A stretch of 64,000 nt of DNA, from positions 29,884,001-29,948,000 of the forward strand of contig OZ004608.1 in NCBI GenBank assembly GCA_963924565.1, in the 5' to 3' direction. The notes beneath the pieces were generated by a model. That model was not told the DNA's origin. It saw nothing but the letters and a program-made list of their open reading frames with translations, and did no database searches. A program made the position numbers and the translations under genes. The DNA comes from Ascidiella aspersa. Lineage: Eukaryota. Shown one piece after another: positions 1 through 64,000 of the stretch (its first letter is position 1; each line of letters opens with the position of its first letter).

Positions 1-440
1 TGGGCCGTTTACAAAAATAGCGTCGCCGGCGTCTTGTCGAGGTAAAACTAATGCATATCTGAGTCGCTGCGTCGACAGTTCGCTTTTGCCATGGTTACTT
101 TCAGCTGTTTATTGCTGCCAACCTTAAACTTGTATGTGCATGTGGACTGGTAGACTAGGACTTGTAGATGTAAACATGGAATAGCTGAGTTGCTGGAGAG
201 GGACGTTGTGCGAGCAAGGTCAAAGCGTTAAGAAAGCATACTCTTTAGTTTTGTCAGGAGCCAAGAGTCCTGGTTTAGAAGGGAAATGTTAAAAGCAATG
301 ATAAGCTAAATTTTTAGAAACAAGGTGTCTTCTCTCCCTTGCAAGTGAAGCTTTGGGTTTTTCTTTTAAAATAAAATACAGTCATTTTATAAAATACAAC
401 GGGAAATATATTTCGCAAAATGCATCCTTTGTCTCTACAG

Positions 441-694
441 CTGCGTTTCTTAACCTTTTTAGTTCGTGGCGGTGCATCTGGCGAGCGCGAATATTTTGCG
501 GTATTTCCCTTTAATTGCTTGTAATTTGTTTTTCATTGGTTGCATAGTTGCAGTTCTAGAAAGTATTCTGTTGGTTCAATGCCCTAAGACGAAAAAAATA
601 TCTATCTCTTATATAAATGAGAAATTTTTTATATTTTAAAATCATTTTCCTTGTGCCTGGCAGCCTTGCATGGCGCACCGGTTAAAAATGGCTG
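441..694. mobile_element. Degenerate non-autonomous hAT (Charlie/Buster-like) element
   Basis: Ends ctgcgtttcttaacc / ggttaaaaatggctg; flanks ctctacag / ctctagac (imperfect 8-bp TSD). Confidence 0.55.
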
Positions 695-2449
695 CTCTAG
701 ACTAGAGACCAGGCAACATGCTTTTTTTTTTCATTTCAAGTTTCGCAAGCTGTTTTTCGGTTTCGACAAAGACTTAAACTGGCGCTGCCCTGAATTCGGT
801 TTCGCAGCTTGTTTTACCGGTTTTCTGCTCAGAATAAAATTGCCGGCGCCTTCGCAAAATCGAATGTGACGCGTGTCGCCGGTATTCCAGCGAATGCATT
901 GCTGGCGATTAATAACTCTCTCGAGGTTATTCCTGTAATCAGGCGAGCTGTCAAGTGATGCTGTTTGGAAATTTAAACCTGGTCTGTAAACCAGCCAATC
1001 GCATTCGAAACGTATGTCTCCCCGCCGTCTCTTGAGACACAACCGTGGATCTAAAAGCTTGTCAAAACGACTAGTGTTTTGCGACTTAGGTAAACGACTT
1101 GGCTGAAATGCACCTAAAATACTTTTTTCAAAAAAAAAGACCCGTCTTGACTCATAATTGCAAATAAAGTACATCTTTTTGTAAGTTTCTGCGTGAATAA
1201 TTCAAATTAATTCACTTTTTAAATTAGCTATACTCGGTTATAGATCTCAATTTTGTACACATAAAACGGTTTGGTTTTTTTAATTTATTTTTAATCTGAC
1301 TCGTAATCGTATGCATCTTCTTACTTGGGTGGTTTGCATTAATTTTCTTATGGAAATAACTTCATATGCTGTGCTTGACTTGTTTTATGAGTGATTTAGG
1401 CTAAAGGACTTTACTCCGTAACTGGAGACTCAACTTATTGTTTAATTTAGTTGGAACTGATGACTTGGCTATATGTTCGAAATTCTTTTCAGTGAATATG
1501 TTTCTGTTGATCGAAAATGTCATGGTGGCTGTATCGCGCTCCTGACAACGATACCTATTTATTTATATAGGCCGTGCCGCTTTATATAATCACCACAAGA
1601 TCTGAAACGCATCGGTAAGTCTTGCAAAGCGATAAAAAACGACGAATGTCAGATGTATACCGATACGTTTTTCGACGGCGGCGAAAACGTTTCTTCGAAA
1701 ATTTGCTGATCACCCAAAACGCGGTAGGAGAGAGGCGCGCGTTCCGTTTTCTTGCTTTTTGTTTACGCCGCGTGCATTTTTTGACGTCTGTGCTATTTTC
1801 GAGCGTCGGCAGCAGCTACTGCAAGCGCCTGTGCCTTCTTGCCCTTGGCGTTTCAAAGCGCCTTGATTGTTTGCCCGTTTCTGCTTGGCTAATTCGGCAG
1901 CGCGCAATATTTTATGGCCGTGGCCTTCTACGGCCATTTCTCGGCACCTTGGAGCGGCGCCCAACCCCTGTTGACCCGATTGCTGCTTTTTTGGCAATCA
2001 AACTCGCAAATTTGTTTTATTTAAACCGGGGAATTTCAAACTTGCAAGTCTGCGACCCCTTGTCATTTTTCCAAAAAAACTTTTCGCAAACTTTCATGTT
2101 TGACAGTGATGATCAAAATATTTTAGTTAACTGCTTTGCTGCGCGCAGTTGTTAAGGTAGCCTAATGTGCAATTCAGCTTGGGACCGTGTTTTACTAGTT
2201 TTTAAATTTGCCTATCGAAAGAAAAAGTGCAATTTCTATAGATGTAAGTTTGTACTACGTCGTGGGAAAATTAAATGTGAGCCTATTGGCGAACCGCGAA
2301 ACTTGTTGCATTAGTTTTGGACCCTGCTGTTAACAATGGGTCGGCACCTGGTGTTTTAAACGATAAATTTTTTCAAATATGCCACAGGAACAAAAAATCT
2401 CCTCCGTCATTTCGGCGTTTCAACTTTTAAACTGTGGTAATTGGCATCT

Positions 2450-3066
2450 AACAGAACTGCGACCCGCACTCCCGTTCAGATCTGGACGTCTGGGTAACTG
2501 TATCCGCTGCCGAAACGGCGACTCCTCAGGCCGACGCTTGTCGTGGCAGCCCGTTTGTCTATTTGTTGGCGGTCGGCCAGATCACGTAGCGGTCTGCGAG
2601 TAGACAGCGTCGCCAGCCAGCCAGCCAAGCAGTCAGCAAGCCTTCAAGCCAGCCAAGCGCGCCCAGACCTAGCAGCCGTGGGCTGTGGGCAGTCTTGCGT
2701 TGCATCCCGACCTTGACCCTCAGACAGTTCCAGTCGTTCGCCCTGCTGCTGGCTATTGGCTACTCTCGGGTATTGCGCCTTTCTTCTTTTTTTTCAGTTC
2801 TCTCGATCTCTCTCTCTTTTTCTCTCTCGCTCTCTCGTCCAAAAATCTGGAAGAGGTTTGAGCTTCTTTGTGTTGTAGCGATGTTAAACCGCCCGCGACG
2901 ACGCGCGTTTTTCCGTCACCCCTCTGTTGACTCGTGCCGTCAATCGTCGCCCTTCGCAAAGCAAACAGAAAAGGACGACGGCCGCGTGTTGATCGCCGGA
3001 CCCTCCCTCTCTCTTCTCGTTTTCTCTCCATTTTTGTAAAGTTTTCAGTAGCAGTCTGTATAGGCA
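2450..3066 (+). promoter_or_regulatory. Candidate distal promoter / 5' UTR with NFI palindrome TTGGC-N5-GCCAG
   Basis: CpG-rich island; TTGGCggtcgGCCAG at 2566-2580; GCCA(G/A) repeats at about 2611-2660; CT tracts at about 2780-2840 and 3001-3030. Confidence 0.5.
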
Positions 3067-3111
3067 ATGAGAAACCCTTTCGATCAAAATTTCCCTGATA
3101 TGTTTGAAATG
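3067..3111 (+). CDS. Candidate coding end of a distal alternative first exon of NFI (MRNPFDQNFPDMFEM)
   Basis: Three in-frame ATGs (3067, 3100, 3109) ending at a strong phase-0 donor ATG|GTAAGG (GT 3112). It is preceded by a CT-rich, UTR-like GC island. Phase fits a splice to the AG at 30690-30691, giving ...M-DEFHPF. Confidence 0.5.
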
Positions 3112-5133
3112 GTAAGGTTAAGGGAGGCTTGAAATTCAAAAAAAAGAGTGTCACTTTTACACTTTTAGCGTTCAGCCCATAAATTGCCTAATTTTTATAA
3201 ATAAACTGTCCTAGAAACATAAACGTACATACCGTAGGTCATAAGCACCACACGTCTATGAAATATATGTACATGAACACACACGTACTCTTGCCGTAGA
3301 CACACACAAATGTGTCATACCCTGAAGAAGGTACGTATAATCGCATAATTAGCTGATTTACATGGCCTTCACCATTCGCCTTTTGGTCCTTAAGTATATA
3401 AAAGTAAAACAATCTGGACAAAAACAACATGTGTCCAAAAAATTTATTTTCGGGCGACATAATTCCCTAAGAAAGCTGATCCATACGGCGAAATATTGCA
3501 GGAAAGCCACGGTTATTAATTGCCAAAAAATGCCCAGCAGGCAGGCCAAGTTTGGAGTGGCCTTGTACACAAGGACGGAACGGGCATAATCCCGTAAGTT
3601 CCACTTGTGCTAAACAAACTTTCGGGGATCATGGGCTTAGCGATTTATCGAACATCCACAAGGACCGCCACGCTTTTGTTGAATTACGCCGGAATGACCC
3701 CCTCGAAAACGCAAAGCCGATAATTATGTAATCAGACGAGCTGCCGACTATATACCGTTGGCAAATTCGCGCTGGTCAGCAGACAATGCAGTTCGAGGTT
3801 TAGGGTTGTATGCCAAGTATTTTCGGTCATTTTGAACTTGTGCGAAATTCTGATGTTATATAGACATATGAAGATGACTTATCGCTGGGATTTGTTTACA
3901 AGCAATAACTTTTAGGTGGTGTGTATTGAGCATGGTGGTCGTATATATGCTAATATTGTAATAGTGATAATAATTTATTATCGCCGAAAGAATACTTTTT
4001 CTTTTAAGCAATTTTAGCGTGTTGGTAAAAAAAATACATAAGGCGATGGTAAGCTCAAGTCATTATGGCCTTGAAGGGAAAAGTTAAATGCAGAGTGTAG
4101 TTTTGCTACTGAAACTTTTCAAGATCAAGATCAAATTTTACTTAAATAAACGAAAACAAGGCATAGTTAAAAAAAAGATGATCAGTTCATATTTGAAATA
4201 AATCGCTCGGTTGTAATGCGCAGCCTTTTGCTTCGCGAGTTTAACTAAATGGGATTTAAACAACAAGGGAGCATTTAATTTAAATCTGCGGAATCAGAAC
4301 AGGTCCGGAAATAAGGGCTCTTGACTGGATTATCCCGCTCATTGGCCCGACTGAACGACTTAAAGCCGCTCGCATTGGTGCTTGGATATTTCAATCTACG
4401 CTTTTTGGTTATTTCGAAGTTTAAGGAGCTAGCGCGCGATGTCATTTATCAGTATATATTAGCGCGATTAGCTCATAATTACATCGAAATTTGGCGCACA
4501 AGGGCGCGCGAACGCCGGGTGTGCGGGTATGGCGTTCAGGCAGAACCGCTCGATCGCTGCCAAAAGCGCAATCGCAACTACCCAAACCCTGCTGTGGGCC
4601 CTTGAACACTTTCAAAAAACAGTCGAGAAGCGTTTAGGGGGGGCTTGACTGGCCTTCGTCCGGGTCTGCGCAGAACGCGGTGCTTCCGAGGGCCCTCATT
4701 TAGTTCGAGTTAGGTGCGGCCCATTGACGGAACGGAGTTTACGTGGCCTCGGCGTATTGCGAAAGCGCCGGATCCTGTTCAAAGGACAGCGCGGGAATTT
4801 CCGCGTATGAGTTTTTTCTGCACAGCGCTATATATACACTTCACAGTTGGCCGAGCGCTTGACAGACACAGGAAGTGCGCCAGAAAAAAAACTTGGCCTG
4901 AGTCCGAGGCAGTTATAATGGCGCGCGTGCGCACGGCTTTTTCTATATTGGGATCAGACGAGGGCGCTTTGGCGATAGATTGGATCTAAGTTGAAGTAGC
5001 GGCAGGCAAACTCGCGAGGTATTCTTCGAGTGGCGTGCGCCGAAACCTTGCCGTTGGCCGTGATGTAATGCACAAAATTGCGTCGCAAGTTGAAAATAAA
5101 ATTCTCGCTATTTTACTAAAGTCACTCTTGTGC

Positions 5134-5493
5134 TAGGAAGTTCGATACTTGGCATTTGATTCCGATACCCGATACTTTCTACAAAAGGTACGGTCTTGCA
5201 ATCCGATATAACATGATATCGTTTTAGTGTATAAATAGTAAAATTTATGAAATGACCAAACGTGCCAAAATAATGTTTTCAGGTTGTCCATAGCCAAAAT
5301 TTCTGTACGCGATAAAAGTCGAGTTAGTTGTTAAAAAAATGTTTTTTCGGGTTTAAAACGTTATATAGAATTGCAAACGATGCCTAAAATGCACAAATCA
5401 ATTAGATATTCAGCACAATCCTATAGTTTCGGACGAATACCGATACCACCGCTTAGGCTTTCTTTTTCGATCCGATATTTTTGGACATCCCTG
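5134..5493 (+). mobile_element. MITE-like element with CCGATAC subterminal repeats
   Basis: Repeated ccgatac motifs at both ends and terminus ggacatccctg; homologous in reverse orientation to about 34504-35340. Confidence 0.6.
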
Positions 5494-6527
5494 GTTTGAA
5501 GTTACGTAATGCCCGGCGTTAAGAAACGATCGTTTTTTTTCTACTTTCGACTGGCGTTTGACACCCGACACCGACATCTTGTCTACGCCAACAAAATACC
5601 AACTTGAGAAAATCCGTTTTAGTGTGCGTGCCACCTAGAGCACCGAACAATTGTAACCGTTTCAGCTTATGCATTCCGCTTTTAGACACACATGGTGTCG
5701 AACTTGTCGTTTCAAGAGGGTGCTGACCTTGTTTCTTGCCGCAAAAACAACAACCTCTAGCCCTTGACCATACACTCATACAGGCAGGCTGCGCCGCGTA
5801 TGGCTTTACGCGAAAATCCTCTTCGCCGATTTTACAAGCGCGACCCTATCCGGTCGCGGCTGTCCATTTGGGTTGGCGCTAAATTGAAAATAAGGTATGT
5901 ATTGAGCAGTTTCAACAGGCCGAAGCCGCTTGTACCAACATGAGTGGCGGCGGTCGTCACCAAAAGCGAAAGCGACAGTTTGTTGTCTTGCTCGCACGAT
6001 GGCATTTCCGCCCTGACCTATTTGTGAAAAGCGGCAACTGTGTCTCTTGAAGGCAATCCGCTCAACGCCCGAATGTGTGCCCCCCACGCTGTCGCTATTC
6101 CTATCTTGCGATCTACTCCCGGCATTGTCGTTTTGAACAGCCGTCTGACCTAGATTCTAGCCGCGGTAAGACATCCCACGCGTTGGATTCCCATGCATTG
6201 TAGGAATTATTTTGTCGTAACATATTTTGATATTACGTTGTGATATATATCTCTGTAATAATTTTTGTGTTTATTCGTAATTCAAATTTACCTTTGGAGC
6301 ATAATGGTTGTAGGTTGTAGTAAGACGTAAAAGAATATCAAAGCCCATAGAGAAGTAGGTGTCACTTTGAACGTTTCGAATAACTCTTTATTCATTTTTA
6401 ACATAGAGAGAAGGCACTGATTATAAGCATTGACCTAGTTTTTTTAAAACTCATTATAAATTGCTGTTTTATCTTTGATAATTTACTTTCATTGTGTAAA
6501 TTAATTTTAAAGTTGCGGCTAAGTATT

Positions 6528-6865
6528 CGTATACGATGTCATTTAACCGCTAACTGAGGTAATTCGCAGTCGTGTGGTTTCGAAACCGCAAATGTACCAC
6601 ATTAAAAAAGCTGCTTTATTTTTTGGTGACTACCATTTTAGTGGGATAAGGGTTATATTCTGCTTACTGCATACTCAAGTACCAAGTGTTGCAACGTATA
6701 CGATGACATTTATCCACAAGCTGAGTTAAATCGTTAGGGGTAATGTGTTTTTAAAAACCACAATCGTACCGGGTTAAAAATTTAGCTTAATATTCGGCGA
6801 ATATGTTTAATTAGTTTAGTGGGGGTAAGGATAACTTTTTATGCTTGCTGCATACCCAAGTACCT
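6528..6865. repeat. Diverged tandem duplication, ~170-180 bp unit
   Basis: cgtatacgatg.cattta at 6528 and 6695; tgctt.ctgcatac.caagtacc twice. Confidence 0.8.
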
Positions 6866-7317
6866 TTTTTCACTTCCGCCCGGCCTCTGACACGCGGTTG
6901 TTCTGTTGTTTGCGGGACCACACATTCCACTTGAAACGGCATTGCGCTCGCTTATACAGTACAGTAAGTACACAATAGTTGCCACCATACACTAAGTTGC
7001 TTTGTGCGGCCAAGAAACCCGACCCACTCAATTAGCATCCGCCCGGTGTCGAGTAGGCCGACCCGGCGCCGAAGCAGCCATACGTGACCGTGACCTTGAC
7101 CTGTGACCCGGCGTTTCCTCGCACGACGTTCAATATATCGTGGCTTTGCGTTTTTGCGAAATTTGGATTTTGGCCGCCCGGTATTTTGGCTTTGCGCATA
7201 AATCGGCTTAACCACGGCGTTTTGGGTCGATTTCCTCGACAGGGTACAGAGGGTGTGTCTGTGGTTGTCACACACACTTGCGTAAAGCCTATACAGAGAT
7301 CCAGCAATACGCTATAG

Positions 7318-7637
7318 CAGGGGGTTCTTAAACTGGGGTCCATGGACCCCTTTGGCATGCGTGAATTCGTTTTAGAGGGTCCATGACGGCCTAGTTAAAA
7401 TATTAGTATATATTTAAAAATTAATCAAATTGTCAACGAACATAGTTTATTTAAAAATAAAACCTTTTCGCACTGAATGCATCAAGACTCCATTACACTT
7501 TCACATTTTTTTGCATTAGAAACAGCGGATTTTTAAAGTCCATTTGTATTGTGACGTAAATGTATGACGCCATCTCTAAAAATCTCCTTCGACACTGGTC
7601 TATGCGAAGCAAAAAAAAAAAAGTTCAACAACCCCTG
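7318..7637. mobile_element. Non-autonomous hAT (Charlie/Buster-like) element
   Basis: TIRs cagggggttcttaaact / agttcaacaacccctg; 8-bp TSD cgctatag / agctatag (7/8); internal similarity to 49556-49912. Confidence 0.8.
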
Positions 7638-7781
7638 AGCTATAGTCTGTAAGCTCACAAAGGACACAAATGATAAGTTTTATGGGCTTATGGAATCCAA
7701 ATCCATGGCGGTAGGTTTCTGCTTGTCGATCACTGTTCCTCTGACGCGTATATAAAAAATAAAACTCAAAGTTAGAAAATC

Positions 7782-7898
7782 CGAGTAAAACCAGGATGAA
7801 GGATTTTTAAAGGAATATATACTTCGACTATGCTGGCATCCTCAGTTCCTAAAGTAATATATATTCCTTCAAAAAACGTCGGATCCTGGTTTTACTCG
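7782..7898. repeat. Foldback (imperfect palindrome), probable MITE remnant
   Basis: cgagtaaaaccaggat pairs with atcctggttttactcg; inner aaggaatatata pairs with tatatattcctt. Confidence 0.8.
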
Positions 7899-10419
7899 TT
7901 TTTTTTATATTGTGCAACTCACGAGTAAATTTTTGACAGTTTAACATTTATGCATCTCAAGTCTAAAAGAATGCAATAAATTTATGGGTAAGACTTTGTG
8001 TAACATTGTTATAATCCTATTCGATTCGTTTCTAAAGCTTGTTGTGCGACCACCTACATGGTCACTTCACCACTAGTTTTCAAAGCCCTTTTGCACTGTA
8101 GACTGAAGTTTGTTTGCCGACAAAGCATAGAATGCATACATGGCAATATATAATGTGAAGGTGTTTGTACTAGCAGAATGTAGCAAGCATTGGCGTCTTG
8201 GTTGTTTCTGGACTCTCGCGCCTATGTAGCACAGTTGGAAGAGCAACGATCCCGCTATGACCAAAAGGTCGTGAGTTTTAACCTCACCGAATATATGTTT
8301 TTCTAGATTGAGGGCTTGCATCATTAACCGACAGATTCGGTTAGTATGCTATAGCTTCCGGTTTACTACGATACGAATGCCGTTATTGTTGCCAAAAAGT
8401 GACTCCAGAAGGGCTAGATCACAGTTGTTGTACAATGTACACACATGTGGGTAACTTTCATTACATGGCAACATGTTGCAATTTAAACATACAACATAAT
8501 ATAGTAACGAAGTGTGTTACCCGCTACTCGTTAAAGTCAAATGTAAAACACAAAATTCTTCAATTTCTCACAATATTAATCGTTAAAGTTGGAAACTCAA
8601 AATGACACTTATCAAAATGTAATTTTAAAATACGGCTCACGAAAGGAATTTCGATACACGCCGACCGTAAAAAGTCTCATTCACAGCGACCAAAACGATA
8701 TTTTCCGCTCTCGTAAATGTCTCTGGGTCGCGCCGCGGGATAGAATTTCCGTCCTTAACCACCCTTGTAGTCGGCAACTAAAATAACTTTGTTGCCGCGA
8801 GGACGATGACGCGGTTGTCTATGAAGACCTCGCTCGCTCACAAACCAGGCGTGCGGTTTTTTCATTAAAATCGAGTTACAGTGTATAGAAAAAGGATAAA
8901 GGGAAATAATGGAGGACAGTTATTCGTACCGTATGCCTATGCCTTTTTAGGGTATAGGGGTCATTTAAACTGCAGATTGGTATCATGACCATAATATAAA
9001 AAAAATCCATTTTTCTCTTCGATAGGAATCCTAGCTTATGCATTCGGTTCCATGTTTGCTAGGCGTTTCGCCATTTAAAGTTTAAGTTATTTGGTTTGAA
9101 TGTATTTACTGCATATCGGTAACAACGCTGTTCGATATAGTGGAAAAATCTTCCGTTTGCCATTTTTATTGGGATGCAAAATCACACTTTAAACAAAGGC
9201 ACGGTTAAGGTTGCTGTAAATCTAGATTAAGCTTGTTGAATTTAGGGATCTTAGACCAACTTAATCGCTTTAAACACTCTCAAGCAGCACGGAAAATTAG
9301 GAGTTTTATTGCCTGGCACTCCATGACTGTGCTTCTATATATGTTCGATAGGGTTCTTTAGCAATTATAAAGACTACTAAAATGGGAGCAGATGCCTTAT
9401 ATTTCGTAATGGAATACAGGATCGCATTTAACCAGTGGCAAAATGTCCTAAAACGGTGCTTTATATACATCGAGAAGCCTGCATTCTCACCCGCTCGCAT
9501 ATTGCTTGCGTTTTGATGCCAATTAAGTTGGAAGGCTTTTGTCTGATCTCGGTCATTGCCTTGGAGCGCCCGGCCCATGAAATATGCATGGCACGGTTTG
9601 TACACGCAGGAGCCTTCAAGTTATCGCCGGGCGCTTTTACACGAAAGCCTTGCGCGTACAATATGATGATGTATTGTAAAGGAAAAGGCGTCCAGATCTG
9701 ACCGATTTAGACAAAGCTAGTTAATGCTTTGCAAGATCGCTTTGTTAAAGATATCAGGCTGTAACAATTTTACTTTTTTATTGCCAAATGTCGCACGACG
9801 TTCAATATATCGTGGCTTTGCGTTTGGGGTCGATTTCCTTTTTTATTGCCAAATGTCGATAATTCAATTCGTTAAAGACATTAAGCGTTCCAAAGTCCTA
9901 ATATATATTATCAAGTGCCCACAATTCAACTTATGGAAAAATGAAACATTTCTATGTAACTTGTCTTGGCTTGAGGGCAACCCCTTTACGGCGCCAAGTT
10001 TGGGGTTTAAGAATGTCAAAGGAGGTAACTTATTTCCTTTTAAATTACTTTACATCGCTGAATCTTTCATGAGATTATTTTCACTTCAAGTTGGCCTTAC
10101 GTTTAACGTTGTAATACCAGCAAATGACGCTTATAATCCGCATTAAAACAATGGTAAATATAGTGTTTTGTGTTTTAATTATGCTGTGTCAGTCAACTGC
10201 AATACATAAAGATCGGTAGAAACAGTGTTTTGTAGTTCCTTTCGACTAAATAGATATCTAGAAATGTCGTGTTTTTTGCCATAGATAAAAATATAAACCG
10301 GAATTCTCGAGCTCACCAATCTATAAAGTTCAGGTCATGACGGTTCTTTCGAGATATTGCAAAGCGAAGATGGGAAAAATGTCATTTGTATACACTAAGG
10401 ATGTTTCGCATGATTTTGC

Positions 10420-11080
10420 CCAATTTCGCAGCGCGCAGAAACCTGCGGTGCGTGCATTTTCGAATACGCTGAAAATGGCGACGCTCAAAGGAACCCTAAA
10501 CCCGCCCCCCAACAGAGACCCCGCCCCTATTTGGTCGTCCACCTTTCCAGAGGGGATCAAGGATGTATTGCCCTTCTCTCGAACGACTGGCCTACTGCCA
10601 GAACGCGCCCAGAAGCAGTTCGCTTGCATTGTTTCCGGCCGAGGCTAGGTGCCTAATGTGGCACCGGGAACGCTTCGGGGCGATCGCTTCCTCTTCTGGG
10701 TTAAATATAGCCCCATGCTCTTGCCGTTTGCGGGCCGCGGGACTCTTGCCAGAACTTCCTCCTCAGTACACATGTTTATTGCTTGCACTTGGTTGCCGCG
10801 ACGAGCCTGATCCGATTTGGAACGCGGCTCGGCGTTTCTCTTTCTTCCTTTGTTCGCCTTTTTTCTTCTCTCTGTTTTAAACAGGTTCAAGTCGCTCTCT
10901 CTCGCTCTCCGAAGGAAGCGAACAGGAAATCAAGGTGCCGTTCTTGCTTTTCGCCATTCCTTGCAGGACTTGGTATTTTTAGGAGCCGAGGAGTGTATTT
11001 TTAGAAGCGGGGTGCAATAAGGACCGGGTATTTCTGTCTGACTTTGGTTATGTGTGCGTGTCCGTCCCCGGGATTCAGGT
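10420..11080 (+). promoter_or_regulatory. Promoter-like CpG island (GC boxes, YY1-like motif), possible non-coding exon 10885-11078
   Basis: CCCGCCCC at about 10501 and 10520, AAAATGGCG at 10472-10480, long pyrimidine tract ending acAG at 10884, donor CAG|GTACTG at 11079. Confidence 0.35.
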
Positions 11081-49190: not shown

Positions 49191-49231
49191 AGTTTAAGTT
49201 TAAGCATTAAAATGTTTTCTGTTTCCTACAG

Positions 49232-51065: not shown

Positions 51066-52394
51066 GGATTCATCTATTTCCTATTTTTGTGTGTGACATT
51101 TTTAGGGCGCGTATTCTAAATATGGCTGACGCTGTATAACGCGTTTTTTTCACGCTAGAAAAAGTATTGGTTTAGCTGTTTCTTCTTCAGTTTTGCAATG
51201 TGATTTATACCAAACTTTTCCAGTATGCAACAGAAATGTTAACAGCTATTCAGCCGCTCAGGTATATTTAAAGTTAACGAATTATTGTTTTTATGTAATG
51301 TTTAGCAAAATTTTATTTTTTAACTTGTACCAGTCTCAAATTCGTAGGCGTGAAATTTCTTGCAAAATTTCAGTTTTACAAAACAAAAAAACTTTGGGTG
51401 TTTCGGGTTAAATATCTACTTTCCTAAAAAGTCACTTTACACAACAGGTTAAATTTTATCAAGCAGTTCAAGTGCAAGCCCTGACTTAATTTTAGGCGGT
51501 GTGTTGAAAAGGTTAACTTCAGCATCGACCTTATGTGTCGAAATGCCAACATGCCACACACTGCCCACACACTGCGTTATTTGTATGGGGTTTACCTCTA
51601 CCGCGTCATTTTTAGCCACCATGAAACTTAATTTTGACGTACTTGCCAATAAACGGCCACTGGAGATTCTCTTGCGGCCATTTTAGTCATCTATAGCACG
51701 TTTTACATACGTGGAAAATAGTTTTTGATCTTTTTTTAGGCGACTAACTTTATAAAAACCTATTAACGGCCTCCAGACCCTTTGACTAATGCTTTGTCAT
51801 TACGCTAATTAACATACAAATAAGAAGAACTATTTTCTAAAAGAGCTTATATAGCCTGTCGAATGAAAAACACGCATTAAATCCATCCATCCATTGGCAT
51901 ATTCAAATTGAACATTCTAGAAGTAAACTATACCTTTCGATGTTTTTTTTTTAACTTTTAAAGATTAATTGTGTATACAAGTTTTACGGGATAATGCCAT
52001 TTTCGTAACCGTGTTATTATGGTTTCTTGTACTCCATTGAACTCGTGTAGTCTGAAAAAAGAAAAACTGAAAAGCACTACTTTAATTAAACAATCAAATT
52101 AGATTTTTTCTGCTAACTTTTTGAAAACGCTTTCACATATTTTATTATTATTTTTGATTTAAATGAAATAAGTTAAAATGAACTAAAACAAAATGGCGGA
52201 TCAGGGCAGTCTTATTCAAAACAACGTCGCGAAAACATATGCGTGGACGCGTTTCAAGGTTGGAGCAATTCCAGGCTGTTCGCTTGTTCTTCTGGCTTTG
52301 ATTGGGGCGAGCAAAGTAACTGCACGCTGCGTAAAGCCGCAAATATAGGTTTTTGTATCTAAGCGACAAAGCTTGACAAACAGATATCTTACCC

Positions 52395-52664
52395 CAGTGT
52401 TCCTTAACATTTTTTCCGCTGCCACCCAAAATAATAAGCATGAGAATAACAGCGAAGCTTTGCCCACGCAATTCTTTTCACTAAGCTTTTTATAAGTAAA
52501 CAAAGCATAACAAAAATAGCAAAAATAAATTCGAATTTGACTAATATAAGCCGTGACTTCGTAATGCTTCCGCTAATGCAGAGTGTACTATCTGCACTCG
52601 GCGACCCGTTTAAATCAAATCGCGCCTTAATTTTGGCTTGCAACCCGTAGGTTGAGAAACACTG
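52395..52664. mobile_element. Non-autonomous hAT element
   Basis: TIRs cagtgttccttaac / gttgagaaacactg; TSD tcttaccc / tcctagcc (6/8). Confidence 0.7.
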
Positions 52665-53184
52665 TCCTAGCCGAACCGTAAAAAAACCTTGCTGAATAAT
52701 AGTGTGATAAATACAATTGGCATATAATTTGGGTCGAAAACCAAAGCACATTAGATTCTACCAAAAGGTAGGAGGTTTCTCTTTTCTCAAAAATTGCAAC
52801 GGGGCAAGTATACAAAAAGGCCCTTTAGGTAAAGCGAGCTTTGCAATCATACGAGAATTCCTCAACCTTTACCCTGACATTTCGTGCACAGCCGTGACGC
52901 GGTGGCATGGGACCGTTCGGCGTAGGACTGGGGTTCAAGTTCGCCCCAGTTTGCGGTGAAGGGTTCCGTTGTTGTAGCGGAACCCTTGCGTTTCGCCCCC
53001 TGGGTCTTTGACATTTTATCCGGTACAATGAATTATTGCGCTCTCGGTAAAAAAGGCTTTTCTTTAGCCTAAGTGCATCGGCCTGTAAATAGTTCTGTAC
53101 GCACTGTTCACTCTTGGGATATCTTGACTAGTGGAGCCGCTCTTCTTGAACTTGTTTCCAGCTGACCGACCGCATTTCGTTTCT

Positions 53185-53256
53185 CGTGCGCGCGTGCGTG
53201 TGTGTGTGAACGCGTGTACTGTACGTGTGTGTGTGTGACTGTGTGTATGTGTGTGT
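53185..53256. repeat. Interrupted (GT)n/(GC)n microsatellite
   Basis: gtgcgcgcgtgcgtgtgtgtgtg...gtgtgtgtgtgtgactgtgtgtatgtgtgtg. Confidence 0.9.
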
Positions 53257-53498
53257 TAAAACACACAGGTTGGCCTTCATCTTCGGTTACCTTGTTGCGC
53301 CCGCTGTTGTTTTCGGTACACAGTCTGCAGGCATGAAAGAACACTTTGCAAATCGTCATCGCAGACAAAACTTTTACCTATTTTTCTATCTTTCCTGTTT
53401 GGGACACGCTGTTCGTTGCCCATAACCCATTTCAACAGATTGTAGTTGATAAGCCACTGGCATTTTTAGGTACACTATGCACTGATCGGTAATGTTGC

Positions 53499-53661
53499 TT
53501 GATAAATGAATTGTAAAGCCAAAAAGGTCGAGTAAATCGAAATCAGCTTAATTAAGACGTTTAACATTAACTCAGGATGATACAAGTTCGTATTGAAACG
53601 TATTATCAAGATGGTGTCGATTTACTCGAATTTTTGGCTTTGCAGTTAATTACATTATCAA
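53499..53661. repeat. Foldback / palindromic MITE remnant
   Basis: aaagccaaaaaggtcgagtaaatcga pairs imperfectly with tcgatttactcgaatttttggcttt; outer ttgataa / ttatcaa. Confidence 0.8.
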
Positions 53662-55724
53662 ACTGGCTTTCTTGTTTTAAAAATTTCGTAACTTAGTTTA
53701 ACTCTTCTTTTAACATCAAGTTTGCGTGATTGTCTTGAAGCCAGTCACCTGTGTAACTTAGTGTATATAGTTGTAGTAAGATGAGAACTGCCTCTTTTTT
53801 GTCGCGGCCTCTAAGTCGCGTTAGGCTTCGGCCTAAACGTGGATCATTGACTCCTAACGTTGCTGTCTCTTACTGCATGGAGATTATGTATGCGTTATAA
53901 CAGTTTTGTCGCATTGTTGGTAAAAAAGTGGTGTTTTGAAAAGCATATGTCAAAATACAATCGTATGAAACGGCAATCAAAGCGATAAGGTTTGTTTAAA
54001 ATACTGCGGAATCTTTCTAAAGGAAGGGCCTAGCGAAAAAAGCATCACTGTACATGGCGCTTTTTATTATGCCACGTCAAACAAAAAAAACTCGTGCAGC
54101 ATTTATAATGCGAAAATTGAACTGTTCGCCTGTTTTTATGTTCGATGAGTTTTCTGATTACCGCTCCTTAAACGGATTGCGGTATCTTGTTTAAACTTGG
54201 AAAACTGGCACAATTCAGTGGCGCGGAAAATAAGCTTCTGTTATGCAGTGCGGTAGGGTGCAGCTGCATAACTCAATGGTGTAGTTAGAAAAGAAGCCTT
54301 GTACTCACTTTGGGCTGGGTTGCAACTAATTGGACGCCGCACGCTTTAGCTACCAACGTAGCCTAAATATAAATGGCTGTCGAAAAAACACTCTCTTTAT
54401 ATTCAATTGCCTTATTACTGTTCTTGGGCGAAACAGAACAAACACGAAAGCCCAAACAAACACTCCCTCTTGTTCAATTTTGTGGTAATGTATATTATTC
54501 TTTATGCGTTGATGTGCTTAAGACGATTTTGATTTCACATTTTGATGTAAACCTGATATATGTTTTAACTATAGTATTGTTTTCCAATTGGTGTTTCCCT
54601 TTTGTCGTATTTAACAAATACTTTCTTTTATTTTATTTTTTTATTAACGCCTTAATTTTATATTTTATGATTAGTAATAATTTAATCGACCTAAAACACA
54701 ACTTTAATTGCAATATTTCACTTTTTTTGAAAAATGCCGGTTCAGGGTTTCTATTATTTCGTCTGAATGATTTATATTTACTGTTTCCTAATAAGTATAT
54801 GAAACATATTTTTTTCTGAAAATTTTATAACATCGTAATTATAAATTATACCCTTCTGACATATAGTTTTCGCAAGCGTTATCCTCTATTTGTCACATCA
54901 GACGCATACAACACCGCCATTTTTAGCGAACTTGTTCAAAATTCAGAAACCCAAAATAACGTAAACGCGAGCGATTGAAAATCAAAAGCGTTTTAAAAAT
55001 TGCGACCAAAACAAAAGAGGCAAAAATAAAGGACCTTTTGGCAAATAAGGAACCGAGTCTAAAGCGCTAAACATATCGCTTATGCTGCGCCGACAACAAG
55101 CTAAAGACACAGCAGAACCGCGCTCCCTTTGCGTAACATAATCCACCACCCTCCAGCAAAGCTGCTGTTGCTGCTGTACATTGCTTTGCGCGAAGGCGCA
55201 ATTAGCGGCGCCGACATGAAAGGCGGGATTCCGGGCGCTTGGGACCCGCCAATTTCGCGCGGCCGACTCGGGGCCGGTTTTCGCGCGGCGCCCGGTTCCC
55301 GCGGGACTCAACGGCCTTAAATTAAGCCGCTTACAGGCAATTTGCTGCCGCTAATTCGATTGCGCGCAATTTGCGGACAAGACCGGCCGACGCCGTGTAT
55401 TTTCGGCCTGTGGCGCCTAATTGCGAACGGGATCTGACAATGTCGTGCCGCTGCTAACGCGAAAACAACGCCCCCGCTACGAACGTGTTGTTCTGTTTAC
55501 GCGTTTCGCTTTCGATTCTGCATTATCCGGTGATTATACGAGTGTTCGGCCATGTGAATGATGTGTGTGAAGCACTAGGCCTCGACCGCGAGGTCTGACA
55601 TTTGTCCGTTTGCTCTTTTCGTGCCGCTCGTTTTGTGCGGCGTTTCTGATAAAGCACGGTTACTTAATAGCACTTCATTCTTGGATAGGGCCATTGCAAT
55701 TTGTTTGTGTTTTTCAAGTTAGAC

Positions 55725-55830
55725 CGAAACGAAACTGAACTTTGTCGAGCTTATCGTGTTTCGCGAAACTAAACTTAGAGCTTATCGTGTATCCCGAAAT
55801 TAAACTTGGAACTTACCCTGTTTCCCGAAT
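55725..55830. repeat. Short tandem repeat, about 3 copies of ~31-34 bp
   Basis: cgaaactaaactt..agcttatcgtgtttc.cg-like units. Confidence 0.75.
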
Positions 55831-57264
55831 TAGGATTATCGAATTGGCGAAAGCTGGGAGTTCAAATTTACTTAATTACCCGGTTTTTTAAGTTCTCTCT
55901 TGGGTTTCGATCCTCAGACGCTAAGAACATGCTTTTCCATAGGTTTAGAAGATAAAGTTATATATATCGCCCATATACGTCATCTTGTCAAGCCCTTGGG
56001 AATGCGATGATGTAGGTTGATATCGCTGTAAAGCGAATCCGTTTTTGAACTTGTCAGTAAGGCATGAAGGTTTTATTGTACGATTCTTACAGCTATATGC
56101 TTTGAAATGCCAGCCAAGTCTCAGGAACTGATGATCACGTATTCTCGATTCTTTCCATAGTTACCGGTTTGGTGGGTCGTTAGCACTCAATTTTATCAAT
56201 TTGCTGAAGCCTTATTTCATGGCGTAAATCAGGCCTACACAACTAAAAATAGTACAAGTGCCGCCACAAGAAAAAATAACTTCTCGGTTCACATACTGAA
56301 GTTACATAACCATAGTAAACGATGTGTGATTCATTAGGTACATAAATCGAGGCCCAATAATAGTTTTGTTTAACATAAATTTTGTAGAGTTTGTGCAACA
56401 TATTTGCCCCCCTGATTCCGTCACTGTCTGCATTGCCATGTTTTTCCAAACTCACGGTCTCGTAGCCCGGCCATTTATTAAACACAAGTAATAATTTGGT
56501 GATTGCAGTAATTATGTGTGCGCAAGTCCGTACATATATAAAATAGAAGTACTGTAGTAAATCGAAAAATGTTATTAGCTCTTGAGCCGCACGTAAACTG
56601 AGTTTTTTTGGTTTAAATCCGAGAAAACGCTGTACTTTTAATGCGTAACATATACGCAAAATATAGCATCTCCTAAGCGACCATTGTGTTCGATTCAATC
56701 GTCGGTTTTCCTAAATACAGTATCGCGTGGCGAAAATACAAAATTCGCCGCATCGCATTTAAATTCAAGGAACCCGCCGCATTTTTTAGGAGTCTTTCCA
56801 GGAACGCGCGGCAAAAAAACTCATCAGCGCTTTAGGGCTGGTATTTCCGACGCTTCTAATCAGGGGGAAGCCCCGACTATTATCAACATTCTGAGCGAGT
56901 TTTGAATACGTTGGCAAGCGCTGAATGAGCGCTTCGCCTCGCCAAGATTTTCGAAAACTGACAGAACGCGTGACGTCATCTGACCGATTGTGACGTCGAA
57001 GTAATTCTGGTGACGCGACGGTTGGTATCAGGTGTACGCAATTTTTTTGACAGACAACTTAAGCATGCATTCTGTACAGTAACAATAAACGTTATGTAAA
57101 TTAACAGACACTTTTTACCTCTATATAGATTAGAGTTACGTTTTTGCTTAGGTTAAATTCCGAATACGTCCCGATTCATTACAATAGGTACATATTTCTT
57201 AACATTTAGCAGACAATTTTACGTTTCGACTTTTGTGGAGGCAAAATTCTAAGCAGACATTTTT

Positions 57265-57780
57265 TACGTTGGTATGGATTAGCGTTACGATTTCTGATTT
57301 CTGATGAGCAACATTACAGGATGCATTCCCATATAAAGCACAGCCCGTCTTTTTTTTAATAAATGGATTTATTCGTTTTAGAAACACCATTTAAAAATAG
57401 ATTTACGCAAGCCACAGTAATAACTCCACGGTAAAAGACATGCGTAACGTTGATATGGATTAGCGTTACGATTTCTGATGAGAAACATTACAGGATGCAT
57501 TCCTATATAAAGGACAGCCCGTATTTTTTTGATAAATGGATTTAATAGTTTTAAAAACACCATTTAAAAATAGATTTATAGTGTTACGATTTCAGAGTAG
57601 GCCAAATTCAGTACGCCTTCTAAAAAGTCGAAATAGACATAGACGCAAGCCACGGTATTAAATGGACAGTTCACAATAATATAGATTGGCGTTAGCATAG
57701 AAAGGCGAAATATGGAATGCATTTCCAAAGGTCGCTATTTAAGCTCACGTCATTTTTCAGATTTTTCAGTTACGATTTTT
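57265..57780. repeat. Tandem duplication, 181-bp offset, with a degenerate third copy
   Basis: tatggattagcgttacgatttctgat at 57273 and 57454; acattacaggatgcattcc and acaccatttaaaaatagattta twice. Confidence 0.9.
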
Positions 57781-58694
57781 TAAATGGGCATAAATTCGTG
57801 CTAGAGTCCTACTGCAGCGAACATATACACAAATTATCCGGGACATGTTTTTAAAAATCGGCTCATACGGCTATCTATGAGTGCTGTCCAATTGGCAGCG
57901 ACACCCAAGATTTTATTTGAAAAACGTGTCGCGCCGTTCGCGACAACGGGGATTTTCCTTCCTCGCAACGATTATGGAGGTCGTGCTCGATTTACGTTTT
58001 TGCCTTGCTTTTGTAGCGCGCTGTCCGGTCGATTTGTTGCAACGTCGCTAATGCAAAGAGGGTTTGGATATTTGCAGTTCTCGATTTTTTTGTTGCAATC
58101 ACTCACATGTTGAACATGTAAGCTTTATGAAATTTTTTCTTAAAACTTGCGAAGACCCAGACATCTGCAAAGCAAGTGCTATTTCGTTACTGTACCGCTT
58201 GAACTAGAAACTATACAATACTTGAGTATCGTTAGAACATTGTTTTACCCATAAACATTTTTCATAAAACACATGCAGTTATTTTCTGCATGGAAATATT
58301 TTATTTTATTATAGACGGGATTGATTTGCACTTAAATCGTCAAACACGCAATTGCGTTAATTTGACGGTTTAAAGCAAGGGTCACCTAATTTGATTGACG
58401 ATCGTGTACCTGTTATAAATTTTGTGGTAAACTTTATTAACTCGACTATTATTAAACGAAGTAAACGTTGACAAATATTTTATAAAATGTATATAGCGAG
58501 TGTTACGAAATTGTCGTTATGTTTAAAACGCTATATGAATTCAGCTTAGTTTTGCACATGCCCTTTTTGGTTGGTAAACTATTAAACACCGTCTTTTGGT
58601 AAATATGCTGCTGCGGGCCGAAATAGTTAAACCTGCGGCCCATTTTTTGGAGAACCCTGTTTAAACCGAAGCATAAAAAATCGAAGGATAACAA

Positions 58695-58778
58695 CCACCT
58701 GGCCCGGGACTCGAACCGAAAACCTTCAGATCTTTAGCTTTCGTGATGCAGCAAAACCTCATTCGCCATTGGCGTGCC
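58695..58778 (-). pseudogene. tRNA-derived (SINE-head or tRNA pseudogene) fragment
   Basis: On the minus strand, A-box-like TGGCGAATGAGG and B-box GGTTCGAGTCC; no convincing cloverleaf. Confidence 0.5.
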
Positions 58779-59269
58779 TCGTACCCCAAACTTCTCCCGA
58801 CATTTACAGTAAAACCGAAGCTGGCGCGCACACAGAACGGAACCTGTAACGGTGACACGGTGGCCGTCTCGAGTCTACGCACGTAAAGCTAGACACGAAC
58901 GAAAAAGCAACAGCAGCACTAGCAGACATGTCGTGATGTCCCATCAACCAGCAAGCGCCTGATTGCTTTTGGAAGGCTTCCAGATTCCCTCGCCTAACGT
59001 TTCCGGCATGCCAATTCCTCGTGCGTGGGTCTCGTCTGGGCGCGGCGCTCAACCCTGTGCCGAAATCCGAGGAAATTGCCTAGACACGAACATGAAAGTG
59101 CGGGGATGCCCGTTTATTCACAATAAAAATTAAAAAAACGGCAAAATAATCCGATTGGGGCACGAACGTTGTGATAGATTGAGTCGTTTGATTTCTCCCG
59201 AACGTTAAAGCCGACTCTTTCTCAAACGACGCAAAAAACGTGTGAAAAATTCGCTACATTATTTAGTCC

Positions 59270-59550
59270 CCAATTCTCGACTCCGGTAAATTTGTCGAAT
59301 CCACCGAGTCCCGAGCTGGGCGTCGATTATACAGAAATCCATCAGTAGGGCTGGTATAACTTATCCACTTACAAGGTACGTGGGTGAAATGTTTTACCAT
59401 ATGTTTTTCCATCTTAACAACTTAAAGTTTATGGCCTCATTAGTTTCGAAATTTGGTATTCAGCATGCGGACTGTATAGTTTCATGTAGTCTTACTCGAG
59501 TTCCGAGTCCGACTCTGGCGAAATAAACTCCGACTCCGCAGCTCCGATTT
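59270..59550. mobile_element. Degenerate MITE with CGACTCC/GAGTC repeats
   Basis: Clustered cgactccg / gagtcc motifs at both ends of an AT-rich core; termini unclear. Confidence 0.45.
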
Positions 59551-62500
59551 AGCCAGGCAAAAAAAATACTACATATTTTTTACCCATAAACATATGAAAA
59601 TTCCCAAGTAAAAATCCTAAGGAAAAAAATATATAGGCACACACAGAGTTTTTCATACTTCAGAAAGAAAACTTCAGAAGTGCGAAACACTCGTTTTTAC
59701 GCGTATCGTTCGACGATTCTAAAAATGTAAAACTTAAGTCTGACTGTTTAACATATCGGTATGTCCCGCCTTTCGGTTCTGCATAACAGAAAATGTTAGC
59801 AGCTGTTTCACGTCGTTGATCGTAAAACTCCCGACGACCTGACATAACAATCAGCAGAAAAAATCAAGAAGACAGTGGCGTCTTTTATGGGATAGCTTTG
59901 GTGTTTCTATAAACATCAGGCAACGTTTTCTGTCTCGGCTCAACCGATCGACAACGTTTTGCTTGCGGCGTTTTGTGTATAATTGTTTCTGCATAATCTC
60001 TATCGTGATCACCTGTTTTACATTTAACCCTGGGTTTTGAACAAAATCGGTTTCGTTCGTTGACAGTTACGAAATGGCTTTTTGAGGTGATGTCATTTCA
60101 ATTTTGGATTTTTTAATTCTTTAGGAAATAACCTTCACTATCAAGTTTAGTCATATTTGCATAGGACTTGTTTTAAATTATGTAGTTACTTCCCACCTGA
60201 CAGTGTCACGCAAGGAGGGGAGAGGTCATTAACCTAGGGGGTCTTACGTAATATTTACAAACACATCACAGAAAAACTAGCAAACTGCAGAAAAAAGTTT
60301 TTTTGTCCTATCAAGTTTTTTAGCGATTTTTTAAAGTCAATTAGCCTACTTAGGGAAAGCAAGAAGGATTTTTACTTTCTAACGGCACACCTGTATTTGT
60401 TGGTGATCCTTATGACAATGACAATCTTACTACCCTGTAGGAATCAATTGGTAGCGCTAATTTACGAAATCTTTCGCGATAAGCTGGTAATGTTTTTTGT
60501 TTATAAATTTACAGAAAATTATTTATTTTGCTATTAAACTTTAAAGGACGTCTGTCGAGGTGTCTTCTGCACACTCTTGGTAGTTCAGTGCAAACCGAAA
60601 AGTTTGGTAAAGGAATGTATAAACCAAATTGTGATTCATAGTAGAAAATTTCATCTCACACTGTGTTTTCTATAAACTTAGATAAGAAAGAAGTTAATTA
60701 ATCGGTTATGTCAATGCAGGCATTTTTACATAGGTATAAAATTGAAACCTATACGACATTTGTCATACGTTCAAACAAACTTAACTTTAGGACGATTAGT
60801 GCATCCTAGTTTGTAACAAGTCTTGGCTTATGGAAAAGATGTGTCTATTACAGTTTTACATATTTTTGTTTAATTTTGTCGACTATTTTTCTGTAGGTTT
60901 GATTTTGTGTTAGCAGGGTACATCGAAGTAATAGATAAAAAAGGTCAATTACTTCGTGGGTTTTGCTGGGGAGGAATTTACTGTGTTTGAGCTTGTAAGG
61001 AAGGAATATGATAAACTTTGGGAACCACTGGCCTAGATTCAGTCCACGTCAGCACCGACCCGGGCCCGCCACCTAACGGTCGCTTCTAACGCTCCCACCA
61101 TAGTGCTTATCGACAAACATTTGCCGATTGTATCGCGCGCAAAAAAACAGCGCCCGCTTCCAATAACCAGCGCACACGGTTTCTCTAAATTCCTGGCTTT
61201 GCCCACCGGCCAGAAAACGCCTCTTCTGCCAGAATATACGCGATGGCTTATTGCACCAACAAACAAAGCTCGGTGCTTTATCTCGGTAGTAAAACGCGCG
61301 CTGTTTTAGATTTCGTACGTTCGCTCGCTCGTGCTACTTGCTTGTGTTTATCACGCCTGGAGGCCGCATTACACTGAAACGCGCTCACCTCTCGTTTGTT
61401 TTGGAAAATCGCGTTTGTGTTGTGCGATGATAGTGCGATTAGAGTAACAAAATGCTGATTCGACCTTTTTATCTTACAATGATTTATTTTCGTCGCTTGA
61501 TTTTTTATGTCAGGGTTTATCAAATTTTTTTTAAAGAGCCAAGTCATGGTCAAAACGAATAGCGTGGGCCGTATAAATAAATATTTTTAACATAATATGT
61601 AATTAGATTTTTTAATTTGTCGTTTAGATTTAATTAAAATTTAGTTCATATTTGCACCCAAGAAACATTTCCGTTAATAAACTAGCTATTATTAACCGTG
61701 CCTTTAAAAATATGTCTTTCCTGTTTTAAGACCCATGATCCTACACTGTTTTTATCTCTTGGTTGGATGAGTAGCGTATGACAATGCAAAATGACCACAT
61801 GTCAATATGTTCATGTTTTAATATTTGTTTCATCCCACCCGTTTCATGCATTTTCGCGGTTTTTGATTGTTTGCGTGTATATGAGGACGCTTTGACCACG
61901 AATAAGCCAACGCCCCTAAGCGCAATAAGATTATTGCGTAAAAGTCGTTTTGGGTGAACACAAATACTACGTTGTATACACGTCCAATGGAAAACATTTA
62001 AAAGCGTATTAAAACAGGGCTTAAGGTTAACAGTGTGCCTCACTAAGACTTTGCTCTGCCTGATTTTATCGCAATGAACGCCACAATGATCGCCAAATGA
62101 TCTTTGGGTGCTACGAGCGTTTCAACGTTGTCTGTGCGAAACCGCAAGATTGTTCTGTCAAATACCTGACTTGCCGGTTCGGCAGCCTGACAAAGTTTCG
62201 CACAGATAACAGTACGGTACTGCGCGTTATGGCTGCCTACTAGGCCAGGTTGAAAGACCAATTGGCACAATTTTACTCAAACTGTGTGTCGTGGAAGTTG
62301 CCATTTTGAGCAGAAACCAATTTTTATTGTAGACAATATATTATTTACTGGATAATTGAATTTATAATGTGTTTTTTACAATTGCCTTATCGTTGCTGTC
62401 AACCTATAATAGAATCGTTTTGTAGAACGTACCTCATTTTTTTATCTTATGTGGAAAAAGTCAGATGTTTGCTTTTTTAAGGACATCTTTGTGCCATCTT

Positions 62501-64000
62501 TCGATCTTGTGAAACAGTTTTTTGTTCCTTAGGACGACGATTTGCATTTTTTAACACTTTTATTGCCCTAAAATGGCTCGAAATAGAGTTGAAAACGTTA
62601 TCGCATATCAAAAACTGAGCGGATTGAGTGCATTTGCCAATATTATTGTTTATCTACACTGGTGCTTATTCGGTCTACATATTATTCAATTTGTTGTGCC
62701 GCACTGTATTTTTATACTTCAATTTCAGGAGTGAATCCAAACCCAGTCGGAAATTTTTGCCCGTTTATCCCCGGGCCATCACGGAAAATATTTATATCCG
62801 GCTAAAGGTATATAACCCTGACAATAATCGGTGATATATGACATATTTTTCTGGGTTATTTCTGTCGAAGCTTCATAATCATCGGCGCTTCCCAGAATTT
62901 TGGTGATAAATGTGGTTTTCGTAACTTATTCGGCGATTACCATATTTTCTGGGAAAAATCGAACCTAACCACAAGTTGTTTTTTTTTACTTTGTAGACTC
63001 GCCTATTTTAACAGTTTCTTTGCTAAACCAAAATTTTAACCTATATCATACACATATGTAATAATGTTTTGGGGGTTACTATTTTTACTTGGGTATAAGT
63101 TAGCTGTTATAATCTTTATAGTTTTCTTGTTTAGGCAACATATTTAGCAAAGTTAAGAAGGTATATTTAGATATGCTGAAAAAAAAGATGTTAATTGATA
63201 AAATTTATTACATTAGTAAAGGTTAAGTTGCCTGAACACAAATCTTTTGGAAAAGTACTATTCGTACCAACGCTATACACATAGTTTCCTACTTAAGGCA
63301 ACAATACTGGCTACCCGATGCTTCAACTTCGCGCCGACCTTTCCCCGCTCTGTCCTTGCAATTTATTATATTGCGTTTTTTTTTATTTACAAACGGCGCG
63401 CATATTTTTGAACTCCAGACGTCCGATTGGCCGATATGCGGATGACATCACAATCGAGTTTGAACGTTTATTGTTAAGACAATTGAAATCACAAATCAGT
63501 TGAAAGCTATAGGGCAGCTGAGTGTTAGACTTTTTCGTCAGTTGTTGTTTTCTTTTTTTACCTGCCCTAAAATTTTTACCTTAGCCCTAAAGATCAGGTT
63601 AGCTATCAAATATATGTTTAGGATAGTGTAGGCTAAGCTATATTTGAAGTTTTATATCAGAATAAAAAAATAAATTCATTGAATAAAATAACTTTTAGCA
63701 AGAACTAAATTTGTATCTAAACAAAGTAGGAAACAAGCTCCATTTTTACACCTGTTGACAAGTTTATTTCTGTGGCAGGTGCACATCCCAGATTTTTTAC
63801 GCAATCTAAAGTCACATCTAAATATTTGTATTAAGTGAGCATAAAATCCTGACTAAATACCTGGAAATCTTAAAAAAACTAAAGATATCGACATAAAGTG
63901 CCAATAAATGCCAACACCAACATGGCCTCTGGGATTAAAAGCTGATGGATGTTAAAGATTTTCCTAATTGGGGCGGCTGCTTATCAAAATTTGCAGGTAA

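Follow-up and report, generated by a model that had tools for sequence, protein, structure and literature searches.

The window analysed here is a 64-kb stretch of the Ascidiella aspersa genome (contig OZ004608.1, contig positions 29884001-29948000, in an assembly of 308.6 Mb; all coordinates below are positions within the window). It contains 29.5 kb on the 5' side of the nuclear factor I gene (NFI) and about 33 kb of NFI intron. Along it GC-rich blocks alternate with AT-rich gaps, and the blocks show a preferred neighbour distance of about 0.9 kb, an ordering that is short-range only and forms no lattice. Judged from the sequence, the blocks are probably (with a rough probability of 0.6) a dense cluster of cis-regulatory modules, the packing of which would yield the rhythm. 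The mosaic is not unique to the NFI locus, though the window ranks among the strongest cases, and the most cautious conclusion is that, at the kilobase scale, GC is patchier around developmental regulators.

Blocks and gaps were called with a two-state hidden Markov model (HMM) on GC. The model returned 63 islands (GC 0.53; median length 280 bp, range 60-1140 bp) at a median spacing of 880 bp, separated by gaps with a median length of 520 bp and a GC of 0.345 (34.5%). With the main exon masked, GC variance at 200 bp was 6.3 times the independent-base value; together with the two-state structure, this bears out the alternation of GC-rich blocks and AT-rich gaps described in an earlier note on this DNA. 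All 31 block centres listed in that note (mean GC 0.52) fall on an HMM island or at most 100 bp from one, zones that make up 52% of the window. The list, however, included 31 of the 63 islands and left out half of them: absent were two irregular stretches at 7.5-15 kb (coefficient of variation of the spacing, CV, 0.57) and 45.3-55 kb (CV 0.47), and also the most regular one, at 22-29.4 kb (CV 0.18). The arrays and the NFI coding exons are arranged as follows:

1..28360 (no strand): array on the 5' side of the first NFI coding exon, with 32 GC-rich blocks and AT-rich gaps (HMM)
29555..31042 (+ strand): large NFI coding exon (PF10524, E=7e-26; 58% identity to Clavelina and Ciona NFI)
31060..48224 (no strand): NFI intron in which 16 GC-rich blocks (32701-47640) alternate with AT-rich gaps, some of the latter with local tandem repeats
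48225..48443 (+ strand): second NFI coding exon, remainder of the DNA-binding domain (tblastn, 82-87% identity)
48444..64000 (no strand): NFI intron with 14 GC-rich blocks (50061-63360) (HMM, tblastn)

The islands are not copies of one another, as had been claimed: an all-against-all BLAST comparison gave a single 41-bp match. Rfam and tRNA searches of the islands found no match, and with the BLAST result they rule out the islands as a repeat family, tRNA genes or Rfam RNAs. A Pfam scan of 37 of the 42 listed open reading frames (ORFs) gave no match either, a weak test that also missed the true second NFI exon; the other five ORFs lie in or overlap the main exon. The islands thus appear non-coding, as the earlier note had it, with the exception of island 48241-48520, which coincides with the second NFI coding exon.

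Spacing of the blocks and comparison with other loci

In the autocorrelation of GC, proposed in that note as a check, a trough of -0.11 lies at 400-550 bp and a bump of +0.10 at 850-900 bp. A memoryless two-state model, fitted to the window itself, failed to match it: none of 500 simulations equalled the contrast, and the spacing CV of 0.47 compares with 0.61+-0.07 under the model, one of 150 simulations being this low. The P values implied by these counts are optimistic, as the lag windows were picked after viewing the autocorrelation of the window and its flanks. The same contrast was significant in three of the four flanking 50-kb blocks (P=0.006, 0.017 and 0.041), which the earlier note did not cover. 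A bump at 0.85-0.95 kb is present in both flanks. The fourth flanking block loses the rhythm (P=0.88), and there CpG observed/expected (o/e) is lower and repeats are more abundant.

Within the window, shuffling the real islands and gaps reproduced the raw signal (P=0.12), and we found no phase coherence (Rayleigh P=0.62), no second harmonic (P=0.16 raw, 0.35 after repeat excision) and no quantisation of the spacings at 160-210 bp (P=0.76). The ordering is therefore a preferred distance and not a lattice; what was described as quasi-periodicity at about 1 kb survives as a neighbour distance of about 0.9 kb, without phase or second harmonic. Long-range periodicity, a phased lattice and a tandem array are excluded by the Rayleigh, second-harmonic and shuffle tests and by the unrelated island sequences. 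We also did not find 10-bp AA/TT periodicity, nor compensation between island and gap lengths (rho=-0.14, p=0.29).

The window was compared with 40-kb blocks from the same genome: 10 at homeobox genes, 10 at Fox genes, 18 at fixed positions (random) and 4 of 5 planned at HSP70 genes. Two of 20 fixed-position blocks had been excluded before counting, a tandem array at C5:10M and a satellite of about 325 bp at C6:15M. Median spectral power at 750-1400 bp was 7.8 in homeobox, 9.7 in Fox, 5.1 in random and 4.1 in HSP70 blocks, and the Fox result, a test fixed in advance, replicated the excess (p=0.004 vs random, 0.036 vs HSP70). The two halves of the window, at 12.4 and 11.0, were exceeded by 1 and 4 of the 42 blocks. 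The 5' array (1..28360) is the more regular half, with an autocorrelation contrast of 0.24 that none of the 42 control blocks exceeds. Eight of the 20 transcription-factor (homeobox or Fox) blocks passed their own memoryless null, compared with 2 of 22 controls (Fisher P=0.03). The bump lies at about 1.2 kb in the pooled homeobox loci and at about 0.85 kb in the Fox loci.

Three places met in this comparison have features of their own. The segment C2:33.16-33.26 Mb carries one homeobox and three Fox genes within about 100 kb and has strong GC patchiness. The excluded array at C5:10.00-10.04 Mb has 56% GC and is possibly ribosomal DNA, and the satellite at C6:15.00-15.04 Mb has a period of about 325 bp.

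CpG content, repeats and the spacer DNA

Islands have a CpG o/e of 1.26 and gaps one of 1.17, with a gap TpG of 1.06; just one of 58 gaps falls below a CpG o/e of 0.6. The per-element value of blocks is a little above that of gaps (1.29 vs 1.13, p=0.02). The window as a whole averages 1.28, and certain 4-kb bins in its flanks drop to 0.5-0.77. CpG islands are commonly defined by a length of at least 200 bp, a GC of at least 50% and a CpG o/e of at least 0.6. These thresholds are reached by 31 of the 63 blocks, and the gaps do not provide the CpG-depleted surroundings that CpG islands also have. The description of the blocks as CpG-rich islands holds for their GC, but their CpG richness mostly tracks GC. 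Calling the islands unmethylated is misleading, since the entire 64 kb, gaps included, is without CpG depletion. The gap values (o/e 1.17, TpG 1.06) indicate a spacer without methylation decay, and we infer that the whole window is one unmethylated domain. In Ciona, 94 of 103 regulatory genes are reported as unmethylated (PMC3827831).

The genome has a DNMT1-type gene with CXXC, two BAH and methylase domains, and in a PF00145 search of the assembly the matches were of DNMT1 type or DNMT2-like only, from which we do not conclude that DNMT3 is missing. The DNMT1-type gene, near C2 20.08 Mb, runs for at least 977 codons in one unbroken frame and is apparently intron-poor.

Repeats sit mostly in the gaps, as had been noted. 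With a library built from 2.0 of the 308.6 Mb, a scope in which old or low-copy elements are missed, detected repeats cover 2.3% of island bp and 13.6% of gap bp (about 6-fold denser in gaps), and their overlap with islands is below that of all 2000 circular shifts. A detectable repeat occurs in 25 of 61 gaps and none in the other 36; gaps with repeats have a median length of 630 bp, those without 480 bp. Gap DNA outside the repeats matches repeat DNA in its AT-richness (GC 0.345 vs 0.344). Whole-genome reads placed on 14-24 kb at 80% likeness had raised depth in no more than 6 of 30 bins, in agreement with a low repeat share of the gaps.

Excision of the repeats lowered the spacing CV from 0.43 to 0.38. 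The autocorrelation contrast rose to 0.267, compared with 0.174+-0.035 for random-gap excision of equal length (P=0.01), and was slightly above an island/gap shuffle too (P=0.03); both are scan statistics, which replaced post-hoc lag windows (0/400; P=0.005). Repeat insertions thus blur the rhythm of the window; the homeobox and 20-locus signals, each pooled, did not sharpen on excision. The proposal that transposon-derived spacer keeps the islands about 1 kb apart does not survive the 36 gaps without a detected repeat, the equally AT-rich non-repeat spacer and the sharper rhythm after excision. Individual repeats include:

7307..7619 (no strand): interspersed repeat in a gap, with copies on other chromosomes; by its size we take it to be like a miniature inverted-repeat transposable element
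11891..12250 (no strand): interspersed repeat in a gap, with many genomic copies at 80-84% identity
13303..13619 (no strand): interspersed repeat, mostly in a gap, with many genomic copies at 82-89% identity
18371..18479 (no strand): short very-high-copy repeat in a gap (depth of the 334-bp bin about 815 vs about 5 for single-copy DNA)
34794..35315 (no strand): repeat of 32-33-bp units in a long gap, with a related repeat at 48729-49180

Degenerate local duplications, their units 140-230 bp long, are also present in several gaps (6528-6733, 19270-19717, 26887-27219, 33391-34409, 40972-41162 and 57106-57570). At 49786-50433, imperfect 89-bp inverted arms surround the very CpG-rich island 50061-50340, possibly the inside of a mobile element. 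An exact 35-bp duplicate occurs at 7119-7153 and 9791-9825, 2.67 kb apart and with unrelated flanks; one of the copies lies in an island, the other in a gap. There is also a mild strand asymmetry: on the + strand A declines and T increases across islands, and gaps directly 3' of islands are T-richer (0.34 vs 0.30 A) than those directly 5'.

Motifs, sequence variation and rival explanations

Several short words are over-represented in the islands of the window, 1.7- to 4.8-fold over a second-order background, at ratios of 0.7-1.4 in the gaps; we take them to be homeodomain-, NK2-, CRE- and GAGA-like. Observed and expected counts in islands were 25 vs 12 for TAATTR, 16 vs 9 for CAAGTG, 13 vs 7 for TGACGT and 9 vs 4 for GGATTA (gap ratios 0.92, 1.28, 1.35 and 0.67, respectively). 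Words that we would label GATA-, T-box- and AP-1-like were not enriched in the window islands.

Large length differences fall in the gaps in the sample covered: among 15 of the 24 joints, runs X2 and X6 gave six non-redundant large skips, every one of them in a gap (P=0.005):

15652..15988 (no strand): long piece of gap DNA that a run X2 contig leaves out
14173-14298, 14330-14399, 15439-15572, 16482-16677 and 23477-23597: other large skipped segments

Single-copy read depth increases with island fraction (rho=0.44, p=0.03, 24 bins), which library GC bias explains equally well. In the 6 of 61 metagenome loci compared, only exon, repeat-end or low-complexity matches were found. Run X3, from another organism, gave only short near-identical pieces at the locus, of no use as an outgroup. 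Within 14001-24000, 7 of 30 bins had depth from RNA reads (run X7), and these bins are at or next to repeats; this run had no positive control and is not used as evidence.

The claim that the blocks are constrained regulatory modules and not random drift is supported indirectly by the non-random pattern, the enrichment at regulators, the depletion of repeats and large indels, and the motifs. No depletion of single-nucleotide polymorphisms (SNPs) was seen in a small sample, and this and several further points weigh against a regulatory reading. In that sample (40 of 388 difference rows), 9 of 25 differences fell in an island that accounts for 286 of 906 bp, and SNP density over eight contig pieces did not follow island content significantly (rho=-0.26, p=0.53). 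Indels are commoner in AT-rich, repetitive DNA, some of the skips may come from other repeat copies, and AT-rich repeats fall into the gap state of the HMM by construction. The motif panel was partly picked after k-mer counts, its 13 tests are uncorrected, and islands of the control blocks carry a similar motif excess. Two of the three pre-set Fox statistics failed (p=0.065 for the trough, opposite to the expected direction, and p=0.98 for the contrast). The ratio describing spectral shape is alike in transcription-factor and control loci (p=0.62), so that the effect of locus class may be one of amplitude, not rhythm. The more distant NFI loci that were compared can be aligned in their exons alone, an outcome to be expected between ascidian genera and for that reason uninformative; ascidian non-coding DNA is reported as not alignable at that distance (bioRxiv 10.1101/371005).

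On the reading as regulatory modules, each block would retain a size-limited GC-rich footprint under selection for its binding sites and its local base composition, and the DNA in between would turn over through insertion, deletion and AT-biased mutation. Modules packed near saturation would then give block plus gap as the typical pitch, liquid-like rather than crystal-like; transposon insertions would be tolerated in gaps only, random gap lengthening would blur the pitch, and the entire region would form one unmethylated domain. A neutral patchwork is possible but less probable: local mutation bias, or GC-biased gene conversion with tracts some hundreds of bases long, would create GC patches in gene-poor, unmethylated DNA, most of them functionless. 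The lack of SNP depletion in the small sample agrees with it, as do a band power that over 28 blocks tracks CpG o/e (rho=0.47) and low repeat content (rho=-0.44), the 2 of 18 random blocks that pass the rhythm test, and the spectral shape shared by the locus classes. What speaks against it is that AT-rich words, which we would call homeodomain- and Fox-like, are over-represented in the GC blocks, although AAATTT and WGATAA are not, and that some random blocks have a CpG o/e above 1 yet little patchiness (C4:10M, C4:20M and C1:12M). Published ascidian open chromatin, moreover, is GC-rich and conserved (bioRxiv 10.1101/371005).

We doubt that the pitch is actively maintained by a chromatin or factor ruler of about 0.85-0.9 kb (about five nucleosomes) that selects spacing, with compensating indels in the gaps. 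The flanking bumps at 0.85-0.95 kb and the advantage of real-repeat excision over random-gap excision (P=0.01) and shuffling (P=0.03) would fit such a ruler, but removal of any recent insertion cuts variance even without one, excision fails to sharpen the pooled homeobox or 20-locus signal, the bump differs between homeobox (about 1.2 kb) and Fox (about 0.85 kb) loci, and neither phase coherence, second harmonic, 160-210-bp quantisation, 10-bp AA/TT periodicity nor length compensation (rho=-0.14, p=0.29) was found. Similarly doubtful is the broader idea that ascidian developmental loci share an intrinsic ~0.9-kb pitch through selection or chromatin geometry, with transposons as noise and a module map readable from GC alone in any ascidian genome. 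That transposon-derived spacers set a 1-kb module spacing, the version of the earlier note, seems very unlikely: the 6-fold repeat density of gaps, the greater length of repeat-bearing gaps (630 vs 480 bp) and a library that overlooks old or low-copy elements leave it some room, but detected repeats make up 16% of gap bp and occur in 25 of 61 gaps, read depth is in excess in 6 of 30 bins, non-repeat and repeat gap DNA have equal GC, excision sharpens the rhythm, and repeat-richer control blocks are less patchy. Vertebrate-like CpG islands, that is, unmethylated blocks within a methylated, CpG-decayed spacer, are hardly credible here; a DNMT1-type gene exists, 31 of 63 blocks reach the thresholds and per-element o/e is a little higher in blocks (1.29 vs 1.13, p=0.02), but the gaps, at o/e 1.17 and TpG 1.06, do not show the decay of those 4-kb flank bins that fall to 0.5-0.77.

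The NFI gene and comparison with known systems

The only large ORF of the window (29555-31117), identified from the ORF listing and a profile search, bears the NFI pre-N domain, and the nearest named relatives of the whole ORF are the NFI proteins of Clavelina, Ciona and Styela. Its coding exon (29555..31042, with predicted exact splice boundaries) comprises a tunicate-type N-terminal extension and the beginning of the DNA-binding domain; further NFI exons lie beyond the window, at 65.5-75.7 kb (tblastn). The extension, of about 380 residues (29555-30690), is in the same exon as the DNA-binding domain and is common to Clavelina, Ciona and Styela (exon-wide identity 47-58%), and vertebrate NFI matches span just about 23% of the query.

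If the blocks are modules, a two-state GC model would predict ascidian enhancers where non-coding DNA is unalignable across genera, and the window would supply about 60 candidate elements for NFI. The preferred distance and its sharpening on excision pose the question of whether enhancer spacing is a by-product of packing or is selected. On the sequence by itself, the NFI mosaic is a modest extension of a known architecture. A narrow search, covering few subscription journals and so weak evidence of novelty, found no paper on the spacing or periodicity of a GC/AT mosaic in ascidians or other invertebrates.

[quoted passage not shown] In Ciona and Phallusia, peaks from the assay for transposase-accessible chromatin (ATAC) are reported to be short, GC-richer than other non-exonic DNA and clustered at regulatory genes, and ascidian open chromatin to be conserved within a genus (bioRxiv 10.1101/371005). 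The blocks are likewise short, GC-rich non-coding elements at a developmental regulator: the NFI exons lie within the array, and the elements have a median of 280 bp and a GC of 0.53 vs 0.345. A CORE cluster is defined by at least 5 peaks per 10 kb, comparable in order of magnitude with the ~10 blocks per 10 kb here. COREs are, however, defined by ATAC sequencing, whereas the blocks are known from sequence, and their peaks have median lengths of 119-219 bp; the portion of the CORE paper on which we draw describes no regular spacing.

Other systems resemble the array in part. Vertebrate CpG islands are likewise high in GC and CpG o/e, but here no CpG-depleted sea separates the blocks. In the mosaic methylome of ascidians, developmental regulators lie in unmethylated domains, as we infer for the window, although that mosaicism is reported at the scale of genes, not of 1 kb (PMC3827831). 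Conserved non-coding elements are also single-copy, a few hundred bp long and near developmental regulators; they are defined by conservation between species, and Meis has about 10 per locus compared with the ~60 blocks here. Around conserved elements of Drosophila, GC is reported as raised over about +-300 bp, with a peak of divergence 400-500 bp away, a zone that, with densely placed elements, would produce blocks and gaps on the scale found here (PMC3671938). The Drosophila pattern emerges when aligned elements are averaged, has an AT-rich core of 20-30 bp and is backed by substitution data (PMC3671938), whereas in the window the contrast is visible in the raw sequence (53% vs 34.5% GC).

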